A stretch of 64,000 nucleotides of DNA from Sedimentisphaerales bacterium (GTDB lineage Bacteria; Planctomycetota; Phycisphaerae; Sedimentisphaerales; SM23-30). Numbering within the stretch: position 1 is the first letter of the stretch; every line of letters begins with the position of its first letter. Under the pieces are notes generated by a model. The model saw nothing but the letters and a program-made list of their open reading frames with translations, was not told the origin of the DNA and did no database searches. This document shows, one piece after another, positions 18,586 to 30,970 of the stretch. The DNA lies in NCBI GenBank assembly GCA_963666285.1, contig OY762711.1. One strand, 5' to 3'. The translations under genes and the position numbers were made by a program.

Positions 18586-18812
18586 ACCCTTTTATATAAA
18601 AGATTTATAAAAATTAGGTCCCATAATAAAACCATTATCAGTATTAATAAAAATGAGATTATTGGACAAGAATATTGGTAGGCCCTCGATGGCTGACAAC
18701 CACTGTTAAATCTGTTAGAAACACCCAAAATACATGTTACCCTTAAATGGCAGTACCACTATATCAGTAAATAAAGACTTATATCAAAAAACAGATTTAT
18801 TCTTTATCTAAT

Positions 18813-18841
18813 TTGACATCATTCTATTTAAATATTACTTT
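18813..18841 (+). promoter_or_regulatory. sigma70-like promoter for the putative ncRNA
   Basis: TTGACA-N17-TACTTT. Confidence 0.55.
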
Positions 18842-18847
18842 GAAATA

Positions 18848-19302
18848 GTAACGTAACATATACAATCTAAAAGCTATTCAAGAGCATATCCAGATTTTCC
18901 CAAAGGACTTATAAAAATTAAACCGGTGAAACTTCCGCGTCTGGAGCGAGTGCGATTATATTCGCACTGCAATTGCCGCGAGTTATTACCGGATAGTCAG
19001 ATAGCGCGGAAATTATTATGACAGGATTATAATTCTGCGACATCTGACTTTTATAATATTCTGCCCTGGATTGGGGCTCCAGCCCTGTGTTTGCCTCCTG
19101 ATGGCTGGGGCCCCTATATCCCTTTGACGCAGAATTAATCATGCATAATACTGCAAGGGTGTTTAAAAAATTGTGCATATGATTCGTTGAAAGGCTTTTG
19201 TATTTTTGATCCTGGAACGCCAAGGGCCGTATAGCCCAAAATAGCGGACGAAAGTTCGTCAAAACCTTGTCATTTTGCCTCCTGAATGACAAGGTTTTTT
19301 TT
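18848..19302 (+). ncRNA. Putative ~450-nt structured non-coding RNA of unknown family
   Basis: Promoter upstream, near-contiguous hairpins from 18932 to 19302, U8 terminator, no credible ORF; G-U pairs favour the + strand. Confidence 0.6.
19261..19302 (+). terminator. Intrinsic terminator with anti-SD loop
   Basis: AAAACCTTGTCATT-ttgcctcctg-AATGACAAGGTTTT followed by a T-run. Confidence 0.8.
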
Positions 19303-19310
19303 ACAGAATT

Positions 19311-19334
19311 AATATTGACTTAGAAGTCAATATT
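19311..19334. promoter_or_regulatory. Perfect inverted repeat overlapping the -35 of the XRE gene (autoregulatory operator)
   Basis: AATATTGACT-taga-AGTCAATATT; TTGACT at 19315-19320, -10-like TTAAAT at 19338, ATG at 19350 (leaderless). Confidence 0.7.
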
Positions 19335-19349
19335 TGCTTAAATATCAAT

Positions 19350-19679
19350 ATGAAAAAAATAAAAACAGCTTATCAAAGAGTATTATTAGGCGGCACATGG
19401 TATGTAATTGTTGAAGAAGAAGAATTTATTGCATTAACAAACTCAAAAGATGCAAACAGCAAAACAGATATATTAGATGCAATTAATATCAGCGATCAAC
19501 GCCTGGCAAATAGATTACTCCAACGTCGTCAGGATGCAGGAATTAGTCAAAAAGCTTTAGCTCAGCTTGCTGAAGTACGTGTTGAAACACTTAATAGAAT
19601 TGAAAAAGGACATACAACAGCTGATTTCAAAACAATACGTAAGCTGGTAAACGCTATTAACAATTATAATAAAAGGTAA
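19350..19679 (+). CDS. XRE-family HTH regulator (antitoxin-like)
   Basis: RRQDAGISQKALAQLAEVRVETLNRIEKG. Confidence 0.88.
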   Translation: MKKIKTAYQRVLLGGTWYVIVEEEEFIALTNSKDANSKTDILDAINISDQRLANRLLQRRQDAGISQKALAQLAEVRVETLNRIEKGHTTADFKTIRKLVNAINNYNKR

Positions 19680-28885: not shown

Positions 28886-30970
28886 GTGACAAGGATCAAC
28901 ACAAATATTAATGCTTTGATCGCAAATAACAATGCGGCCAAAGTAGACAACAACCTGCAGAAGACGCTGGAACGTCTATCTACAGGTTTGCGCATAAACA
29001 GCGCAAGTGATGATCCTGCCGGACTGATCGCTTCAGAGAGCTTAAAATCCGAAATAGCCGGCACCAAACAATCAATCGAAAATGCCGAGCGTGCCAGTAA
29101 TATGATAAGCACTGCAGAAGCTGCATTAGCTGAAATTTCTGACATGCTGATTGATATCAAGCAGCTAATCTTAGAAAGTGCCAGCAGCGGGTCTATAAGC
29201 GATGAACAACTGGAAGCTAACCAGATGCAAATAGATTCGTACCTGCAAACAATTAATCGCATCGGTTTATCCACAGAATATAACGGTATCAAATTACTTA
29301 ACGGCGATCAGGATTACAGCGTTTCAGGACAACTTCATTTCGCCGCAACCGATGTAACAGATGCATTAAGTGCAACATTCACATCAGCTTTCAGTATCAC
29401 AGGAATTAAGATCAACAATGGTTATAATGGCATGAACCTGGGCAACTACGATCTGGACGTTAACTTCCTGGTGAGCGGCGTTCAGGCACATTATACCTGG
29501 AGCAGTACGGCTGATTTTATTAACACTTCAAACAATGGCGATAATGCTGCGTTAACAATTACCGGACACAAAGGAACAGCATCAGTTGACTTTAGTGGCG
29601 GGCTCGCAGGAATGGCCAACATTGTAAATGGAATTAACGGAGTTAAGGAAACCACCGGTGTTTCTGCAGGAATCTCCGGTGGAAATCTGGTATTCAGTTC
29701 CACCAACTTCGGCTCAGATGCATTTGTTTCCGTAACCGGTATTGAACCGGCAGAAATAACCTGGACCCCGGATGCATATTTCTTCAGCGGTGCACCTGTC
29801 GGTGACGCAGGTATTACAATTACCGGTAATGATGGACAACATAGCTATTTTGCCGGATACACAAACGCAAATGAACTGGCAACAATGATCAATAATGATG
29901 CTGCAATAACCGGTGTTATGGCACGGGTAGACGGTTCAGATATGATAATTTATTCAGCAGACCAGAACGGATCGGCTAATATTTCGGTCAGCAAATTCGC
30001 AACATATTTAGATAACGGTAGTTTTGCTAACGGTTCTGCTGCAAGCTATGCCTGGAATTCCGTTAGCGATTACATCGGTGTATTAGCTGACAGCGATGGT
30101 GAACTGAATGTACGCGGCATAAACGGTTCTGTTACTATTAATCTTTCAAGTGGAACCTGGACAGAAGCTGCATTGGCTGCAGAAATAAATAATCATACCG
30201 GGTCAACCGGTGTTACGGCTAGCAGCGGATCCGGAACGTTAACTCTAACATCTACCGACGGCAGTGGTGCTAACTTTGTATTTGCTAACGCTACTGACAG
30301 TTTTTCAGATACGATAACAGCCCAATCTTATTCTGCTGCGGGTACCGGATATGCTATCGGCTATAGCGGAGCTGATTATATTACCAGCGGTAGTGAAATG
30401 TTTGATATCGCAGAAATTACTCTTTCCGGCTTTGATGGAATTATAGCCGACGGCGCCGGTGAAACTCAACAGTTCTATGCGGCTACACGAGCAAGTGCCT
30501 CACTTAACGGGTCCAACCTGACCGGTTCCGGAGGAATGGAATTCAACATTGACTCCAGTGTACCAAATTCAATTGACAGTATTTGTGGCATACCGGAAAT
30601 CAGTACAACAAATTTAGGTAATAGCGAGTATGGAACACTAAACGATCTGCTTTCCGGTAATTCAAGTTCAATGAAAGAAGGTAAATTTAATACTGCAACC
30701 AATATTGTTGATACTGCTGCCAAACAGATAAACAACTTACGCGGCAGGTTGGGGACATTCAAGAAATATACACTGGAAACTACCATTCGATCACAACGAA
30801 ATAAACTTGAAAACCTGGTCAGTGCAGAATCTGCAATATTTGACGCTGACTTTGCCAAGGAGATATCTGAACTAACCAGAAACCAGATATTAAAACAAAG
30901 TGGAATATTTATACAACAGGTTATTAACATGCAACACAATAATGTCTTGAAACTATTAGAATCAATTTAA
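28886..30970 (+). CDS. fliC: Flagellin-family protein with a large variable central domain
   Basis: MTRINTN, LERLSTGLRINSASDDPAGL, LRGRLG, AESAIFDADFAKEISELTRNQIL; three IN-type hook motifs (IN...TGV.A). Confidence 0.9.
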   Translation: MTRINTNINALIANNNAAKVDNNLQKTLERLSTGLRINSASDDPAGLIASESLKSEIAGTKQSIENAERASNMISTAEAALAEISDMLIDIKQLILESASSGSISDEQLEANQMQIDSYLQTINRIGLSTEYNGIKLLNGDQDYSVSGQLHFAATDVTDALSATFTSAFSITGIKINNGYNGMNLGNYDLDVNFLVSGVQAHYTWSSTADFINTSNNGDNAALTITGHKGTASVDFSGGLAGMANIVNGINGVKETTGVSAGISGGNLVFSSTNFGSDAFVSVTGIEPAEITWTPDAYFFSGAPVGDAGITITGNDGQHSYFAGYTNANELATMINNDAAITGVMARVDGSDMIIYSADQNGSANISVSKFATYLDNGSFANGSAASYAWNSVSDYIGVLADSDGELNVRGINGSVTINLSSGTWTEAALAAEINNHTGSTGVTASSGSGTLTLTSTDGSGANFVFANATDSFSDTITAQSYSAAGTGYAIGYSGADYITSGSEMFDIAEITLSGFDGIIADGAGETQQFYAATRASASLNGSNLTGSGGMEFNIDSSVPNSIDSICGIPEISTTNLGNSEYGTLNDLLSGNSSSMKEGKFNTATNIVDTAAKQINNLRGRLGTFKKYTLETTIRSQRNKLENLVSAESAIFDADFAKEISELTRNQILKQSGIFIQQVINMQHNNVLKLLESI

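Follow-up and report, generated by a model that had tools for sequence, protein, structure and literature searches.

The 64,000-nt stretch of planctomycete DNA analysed here (the window; host genome G000, 6.35 Mb) contains a region at 18848-19302 that a sequence-only reading described as an unannotated structured RNA of ~450 nt with two anti-Shine-Dalgarno (SD) loops, one of them antisense to a flagellin-type start. This raises the question of whether the region is a small-RNA gene and, if so, on which mRNAs it would act. From the sequence comparisons below, we consider it most likely a real and previously undescribed small-RNA gene, common to many planctomycetes, with predicted expression. 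Its best-supported conserved target is probably the type IV pilus assembly operon; the predicted contact is made by the loop at pilM for most of the family, and by a second element, the seed, at pilB in the host genus.

The locus and its predicted transcript

The predicted parts of the locus, by window position, are:

18810-18844, + strand: promoter, with -35 TTGACA (18813-18818), a 17-nt spacer, extended -10 TAAATATTACTTT (18829-18841) and -10 TACTTT (18836-18841)
18848-19302, + strand: predicted sRNA of ~455 nt in the two-module form, with ends placed by the promoter and the terminator
18848-19055, + strand: variable 5' region, unconserved in length and sequence and aligning poorly with congeners
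18868-18897 with 19168-19200, + strand: long-range helix (pair probabilities 0.5-0.99 across the 5' region)
18923-18992 and 18995-19049, + strand: hairpins of the 5' region (same range of pair probabilities)
19056-19072, + strand: conserved seed ATATTCTGCCCTGGATT, its 3' part like the 16S tail
19073-19114, + strand: module 1 hairpin, loop GCCTCCT at 19093-19099; the family's terminator hairpin, here missing its U tail
19068-19071 with 19118-19121, + strand: GGAT/ATCC extension of the module 1 stem, kept in 3/3 congeners
19205-19260, + strand: degenerate, genome-specific second seed region, where congeners carry TGCCCTGAATC
19224-19237 and 19244-19259, + strand: two small genome-specific hairpins in the second seed region
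19261-19302, + strand: module 2, an intrinsic terminator with a 15-bp stem, loop GCCTCCT (19277-19283) and U tail (p = 0.97)

The σ70-like promoter at 18813-18841 had been proposed from the letters of the window. A consensus promoter scan of the window misses it, yet it is conserved in orthologs, and the family consensus, TTTGCC-N11-TGAATCTTA..T, recurs in class members. The promoter is located 27-249 nt upstream of the seed in 31/32 family loci and scores at least 12 in 30/32, a score of 13 being reached by 0.3% of shuffles. Upstream of the sRNA promoter, at -75/-66, lies a 9-bp direct repeat, ATCGTTAYA, which is also found upstream of pilM in G020. We rejected it as a Fur/PerR-like box: it is an intergenic motif throughout the genome (285 sites above 13 bits) and belongs to a ~70-bp repeat built with AAATAAGCACTTAC units, of which G018 and G010 have dozens of scattered copies, and therefore names no regulon.

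The fold is more stable than that of shuffled sequences on both strands (z = -7.1 for the + strand, -5.9 for the - strand). In the partition function, the core hairpin at 19073-19114 has a probability of 1.0, and the terminator that had been claimed from its U tail is predicted as well (19261-19298, 0.97). All the stem strings listed by the sequence-only reading are present and four are well paired, AGTGCGA/TCGCACT (0.96) and GGGC/GCCC (0.98) among them. GACGAA/TTCGTC reaches 0.28, and three stems have pair probabilities of at most 0.01, namely TTCCGCG/CGCGGAA (0.00), AATTCTGCG/CGCAGAATT (0.00) and ATCAT/ATGAT (0.01). The 12-mer reported at two apical loops, TTTGCCTCCTGA, does stand at 19090 and 19274 and has no other copy in the host genome; some repeated 12-mer arises in 38/5000 shuffles of the region. 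Opening the module 2 loop would cost 0.1 kcal/mol and opening the seed 4.1 kcal/mol; over 25 members of the family, the mean unpaired probability is 0.97 for the loop and 0.40 for the seed core.

The description of the region as ORF-less holds for the + strand, which contains no ORF of at least 60 aa; the - strand has a 124-aa ORF with a TTG start and no Pfam match. A coding reading (the YSALD frame) was rejected, as stops and indels break the frame and the seed has no synonymous pattern. The antitoxin of a type I toxin-antitoxin pair was rejected because the - strand SD opens only a 4-codon ORF and the neighbours vary. The earlier remark that the region lacks a tmRNA signature agrees with ARAGORN, which places the sole tmRNA of the genome at C1:933820-934175. 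A search of the window against Rfam 15 returned nothing at gathering score, only 12 sub-threshold, terminator-like matches. One sequencing run, X5, labelled metatranscriptomic but probably of DNA, gave a single 183-nt contig at 18885-19066, within the predicted RNA, with a depth of 3; we do not count it as evidence of expression.

In the window, the locus is flanked by a STAS gene, transcribed divergently, and by an HTH/ACP-like gene pair downstream that has its own palindromic operator; neither neighbour accompanies the RNA across the family. The operator-like palindrome (19311-19334) precedes the HTH gene (19350-19679) and the ACP-like gene, and the same palindrome and gene pair are also found in G015:C147, apart from the sRNA.

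Distribution, covariation and strand

A DNA search of 61 relatives gave matches mostly to window positions 19057-19115. The core is a 60-nt module, in which the seed UAUUCUGCCCUGGAUC precedes a GC stem that bears a GCCUCC(U) loop and is followed by a U tail. Family-wide, the module reads as a seed (UAUUCU)GCCCUGGAUC, a 12-14-bp GC stem, the loop GCCUCC(U/C) and a U tail. Of the claimed ~450-nt structured RNA, what stands is most likely an sRNA gene, unknown to Rfam, whose functional core is this module.

A covariance model of the core (R1) matched 19/25 family genomes, including 9/9 high-quality ones, and 16/18 genera; one genome, G017 (94% complete), has no module match. An exact pattern found 21 metagenome loci, and a looser pattern scan of a genome collection proved too loose, since R1, applied to 80 of the listed loci, recognised a true member in L069 alone. 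The exact pattern had matched 0/396 non-family genomes, and a set of 141 gave 3 weak matches, none combining seed and loop; the family-specific distribution that this implied was overturned by a broader covariance model (R2). At an E-value of 0.005 or better, R2 matched 22/151 class genomes. Of these, 19 (from 148 genomes that are not of the family) belong to other orders, where they represent seven families. The complete class genome G067 carries the RNA, and a match in G081 (E 0.005) is doubtful in that seed and promoter are absent. R2 found 0/22 in three sampled families of the same order and none in several large families. A sample of 151 genomes from the phylum gave 4 weak matches outside the class, none combining seed and loop, and the viral contigs searched contained 0 motif matches and no PilM relatives.

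Seven duplicate loci were left out of the comparisons. In the class-wide alignment of 44 distinct rows, all 14/14 stem pairs show two-sided changes and 97.3% of cells are paired, whereas 0/500 shuffles reach this pairing and slid controls reach 56% at most. This alignment was fitted to the model; an unfitted 9-row alignment gave 7/14 covarying pairs. The covariation that the sequence-only reading had named as a check is thus present in related genomes. The loop GCCTCC is kept in 43/44 rows and CCCTGGATC in 32/44, while the sequence that separates the promoter from the seed is unconserved. Over 35 rows, the stems in + orientation contain 52 G-U pairs and 3 A-C pairs, and this asymmetry fixes the strand as +. 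Family and class loci differ in the genes that lie downstream, many of which are convergent.

Two copies of the module are present in the host genus (3/3 genomes with the locus) and in G007. Since the genus carries two tandem modules, the 12-mer described above is repeated, and since the first module has lost its U tail there, both loops would lie on one RNA, with predicted lengths of 390-455 nt. Single-module relatives have a predicted length of 98-309 nt (25 members). The seed is lost in 4/4 members from family f11, which keep the loop. In one class locus, L398 (G152), the variable 5' part holds GATCCAGGG, the complement of its own seed, which may be a built-in means of seed sequestration.

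No Hfq match was found in the host genome, by a search that recovered 5/14 controls. No Rfam 15 family matched the RNA in 34 sources (the window, 15 family loci and 18 class loci), the only match being one tRNA, and among the open-access papers listed for the class, none describes a regulatory sRNA in it. We therefore regard the RNA as most likely a new family within a known kind, that of stand-alone, Hfq-independent, predicted trans-acting sRNAs. The family would be old, as it spans several orders, and in the one genome checked it occurs without Hfq.

Candidate targets in the pilus operon and among flagellin genes

The pilus operon has the order pilM-N-O-P-like-B-T-C. PilO was identified by PF04350 and the pilM orthologs match PilM_2; from gene order and by eye, we take the others to be pilN, pilP-like, pilT and pilC. 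The pilM start was favoured by the loop. By loop pairing energy, it beats all background starts in 6/8 genomes (0/44, 0/45, 0/19, 0/44, 0/40 and 0/22 ahead), with 3/46 and 6/46 ahead in the remaining two, the background sets being small (19-84 starts), with starts picked automatically and some wrongly, and the genomes being kin rather than independent. The combined p is 7e-5 (7 genomes, G014 left out), or ~5e-4 when allowing for 7 genes, pilM having been singled out after the operon data had been viewed; the G016 operon, in which no genes were found, was left out. The same test as best of 7 genes gives p = 0.07, and plain pairing of the 16S tail at pilM gives p = 0.035.

The site itself shows a similar pattern. 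GAGGC stands at pilM in 11/18 sRNA-bearing genomes (9/11 of the family, 2/4 of the class and 0/3 of the genus) and in 0/4 RNA-less genomes, two of which have GAGGT (11/18 versus 0/4, p = 0.045); it occurs at 8/306 background starts. The seven sRNA-bearing genomes without it are G000, G001, G003, G015, G020, G064 and G067. In G068, from another order, the loop is a variant one, and the pilM site of that genome matches it over 12 bp (-27.1 with its own loop versus -18.6 with the canonical one), and the G013 pilM shows the reverse (-22.8 versus -14.2), as expected of compensation on the target side. The own loop is the best of four at 3/5 pilM sites, the exceptions being G010 and G276. A c-di-GMP-I riboswitch (RF01051, 60.4 bits) is located ~180 nt upstream of pilM in G068 (L457:8372-8452).

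In addition to these sites, the pilus genes share the promoter type of the sRNA. The promoter matrix scores at least 12 within 300 nt of pilM in 15/22 genomes (16 within 450 nt), and this is a rare type, found at 60/4327 starts of the host genome. The host's pilin-like gene scores 15.7 and its own pilM promoter only 6.1; among RNA-less genomes, 3/4 have an sRNA-type promoter at pilM. Since pilM and the pilin-like gene have promoters of the sRNA's kind, induction of the pilus genes would also induce the RNA. The best match to the matrix in the host genome (24.7 bits) is intergenic between convergent genes at G000:C1:3123806-3123930 (+), where ~80 nt are followed by a U-tailed terminator; it is a candidate for another orphan sRNA in this regulon.

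In the host genus, the candidate contact is made by the seed. When scored against all starts of the host (our own gene calls, 4329 genes and 4328 ranked starts), the best of 4328 was C1:6122923, a PilB-like ATPase whose product reaches 631 bits with TIGR02538, below the cut-off of 676. Positions 19056-19068 are a 13-bp complement of the pilB ribosome-binding site (RBS) region, within 14 nt before the ATG, and the predicted pairing has a net energy of ~-14 kcal/mol after opening costs. The pilB start is top-ranked in 3/3 genus genomes and beats all background starts in the congeners (G001 0/78, G003 0/84), in both of which CAGGGCAG is kept at pilB while the flanks diverge. GGCAGAATA stands within -60..+3 of only 5/4329 starts, three of which are consecutive in the pilus operon; equally frequent 9-mers (five windows) cluster likewise in 1/3118 cases, and those with three to eight windows in 21/22933 (4 loci). 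By energy, the host's pilP-like site comes no higher than rank 111 and its pilT site no higher than 257; in congeners, the pilT site is weak.

The pilB site belongs to the genus. It is absent in 7 orthologs outside it, and the seed tested against the pilus operon in 8 other genomes gave p = 0.24; G065 bears the RNA and has no close ortholog of the C1:6122923 PilB. For GCCCUGGAUC, the best-conserved part of the seed, the matches listed at starts include no conserved complement, and the seed and loop complements listed there, the G014 pilM and pilC sites included, form no ortholog series. Three further candidates were rejected: nqrB/rnfD, whose site is unconserved; the pilin-like gene C1:839902, with weak pairing (-4.2, -6.9); and rRNA or tmRNA, which the seed would pair with over 7 nt at most.

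The flagellin pairing proposed earlier, between the terminator arm plus loop and a start of the form ATG-ACA-AGG, did not survive. The window flagellin does start GTG ACA AGG, at 28886, and 26/100 shuffles yield such a match; no SD is present upstream. The pairing is unsupported because its letters are those of the terminator 3' arm, which are changed in both congeners, and because the duplex (-20.2 kcal/mol) would have to pay 17.9 + 3.9 kcal/mol for opening, for a net of ~+1.6 kcal/mol. The broader proposal of a trans-acting sRNA with exposed anti-SD loops is supported, as a stand-alone gene on the + strand with its own promoter and terminator. The genome-wide search of starts that had been suggested ranks the window flagellin 899/4328 by loop pairing and places two flagellin-like paralogs, C1:333119 and C1:5136345, at ranks 3 and 5. 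In the congeners, no background start outranks the orthologs of these two (0/78, 0/84; three mis-picked class D flagellin starts left out), but their sites would also serve as strong SD sites of the ordinary kind. Beyond the genus, flagellin starts (n = 21) do not favour the own loop (-15.2, versus -16.5 for the loops of the host genus, g1) and show no covariation with it. These two genes are possible secondary targets, through loop-RBS pairing only.

Several features of the flagellin genes were noted on the way. The host has seven flagellin-domain genes; the one at window 28886 is unusually long (a 694-aa frame, with a GTG start and no SD), and its congeners have long paralogs. The leader of C1:333119 and its orthologs (L352, L365, L367) has a terminator hairpin in several genomes, a possible attenuator, with no Rfam match in the host. 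In C1:4745560 and its orthologs (L260, L263, L266), the SD is hidden in a cis hairpin, CCTCCA..TGGAGG, and two other flagellin classes have a CA(C/T/A)GGAGGAT leader common across the family.

Weighing the readings and comparison with known systems

Our main reading, with a probability of about 0.6, is that the sRNA would be co-transcribed with the pilus regulon and would cover an RBS of the assembly operon, with the loop at pilM or the seed at pilB, and so repress its translation. The conserved, rare-type promoter would drive a stand-alone sRNA ended by the terminator, whose GCCUCC loop would always be open; the seed, as a second pairing element, lies immediately 5' of the stem. Across most of the family, and in a single further order, the loop would pair with the pilM RBS and repress translation; in the genus, the seed would do so at the pilB RBS, the module being duplicated and the loops drifting to other strong sites, such as the two flagellin-like genes. 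Co-induced with the pilus genes, the RNA would damp or delay their translation, forming an incoherent feed-forward loop. If true, this would add a post-transcriptional layer to the planctomycete switch between attachment and motility, and the change from loop-pilM to seed-pilB after tandem duplication would be a natural experiment in target rewiring. The target is concrete and testable, a pilus assembly operon whose promoter type the RNA shares.

A somewhat unlikely alternative is that the RNA is a broad anti-SD sRNA that damps the few mRNAs whose AGGAGG(C/U) sites are strong, such as those of the flagellin-like paralogs, fliW, rpsB, rpoA and anti-sigma-like genes, the pilus operon being one of many or incidental. 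AGGAGG stands at just 58/4329 starts and the loop is therefore semi-specific; loop matches pile up at -20..-15, the G of GCCUCC pairs with C or U and so widens the range, and the ranks of the flagellin-like genes fit such a set. However, the flagellin starts outside the genus and the unconserved nqrB/rnfD site speak against it, and it leaves unexplained the C-type site at pilM, the seed site at pilB and the shared promoter. The seed and loop also echo the 16S rRNA 3' end, where CUGGAUC and CCUCC are adjacent (..GGCUGGAUCACCUCCU), so that the RNA might titrate a protein, presumably a nuclease or a factor for 30S maturation or initiation. Against the host's tail, the seed score is reached by 43/20000 shuffled seeds and by 3/545 windows of the rRNA operon. 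The seed core is kept in several orders, yet the matches listed include no conserved complement in mRNAs; this absence, together with the echo, keeps a protein-decoy arm under consideration. Yet the comparison was made post hoc, the A of GAUCA is replaced, a 12-14-bp stem parts the two elements, the f11 members keep the loop after losing the seed, and a decoy would not predict the compensation seen at pilM; we judge such a mimic clearly unlikely. A scheme that joins these elements is rather unlikely to hold in full: a class-wide riboregulator with two arms, in which loop-pilM feed-forward passes to pilB and the flagellin-like genes after duplication and the copies of the 16S 3' tail in seed and loop engage a ribosome-associated protein, as an Hfq substitute or to titrate it.

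Two further readings carry still less weight. The module could simply serve the preceding gene as a terminator or as part of its 3' UTR, with no function in trans, as a gene that we take by eye to be ClpC-like lies upstream on the same strand in 14/32 family loci. This is very unlikely, for the conserved promoter sits between that gene and the module, the neighbours are different ones in 18/32 family loci and in the class members, and loop and seed are conserved in sequence while the stem covaries. The - strand could instead be a CsrA decoy with CAGGAGG loops, as the sequence-only reading had offered. The host has one CsrA, and CA(C/T/A)GGAGGA, which we take to be a CsrA-type site, occurs in the leaders of flagellin classes A and C; but the 52-to-3 pair asymmetry, the U tail and the promoter all point to the + strand, with only 1-2 loops per gene, and we give this reading next to no weight. 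A decoy of the CsrB/RsmZ type was rejected on the same strand evidence, the + strand loops being C-rich where such a decoy would have many GGA motifs. Pilus repression by RBS cover remains our preferred reading.

Among the closest known systems are the cuckoo (RSs0680/CcsR) sRNAs of Alphaproteobacteria, with 2-4 adjacent hairpins that each have the loop CCUCCUCCC (PMC4615179). Both have modular hairpins, a conserved anti-SD loop, freely covarying stems and a varying number of modules (PMC4615179). The planctomycete RNA falls outside the cuckoo definition: it has a GCCUCC(U/C) loop and 1-2 non-adjacent hairpins, usually a single one that is the terminator, an extra conserved seed 5' of the stem, another phylum as host and no Rfam match, the covariance models of cuckoo, 6C, sX13 and other Rfam 15 families being unmatched at gathering score. 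NmsRA and NmsRB of Neisseria meningitidis, whose host has Hfq, are tandem siblings that target TCA-cycle mRNAs; they too are tandem, with a single-stranded UC-rich stretch and a loop that both pair near the target SD and with translational repression (PMC5362039), whereas in genus g1 the tandem modules stand under one promoter, and no sequence relation was seen between the two. Chaperone-independent pairing through C-rich apical loops is also described for sX13 of Xanthomonas, whose reporter targets include pilH (PMC3771888), and for 6C of Mycobacterium (PMC6486639), a precedent for G-C-rich loop pairing without a chaperone; the loops of these RNAs are runs of C4-C6, set in 2-3 hairpins, and the RNAs lack a comparable seed and differ in promoters and phyla (PMC3771888, PMC6486639). 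Similar in predicted outcome is Arp of Acinetobacter baumannii, which represses type IV pilus function by covering the SD of the pilin mRNA (PMC12338739). Arp forms a long contiguous duplex on the pilin mRNA, whereas the planctomycete RNA is predicted to repress the pilus through duplexes of 7-13 bp at pilM or pilB (PMC12338739).
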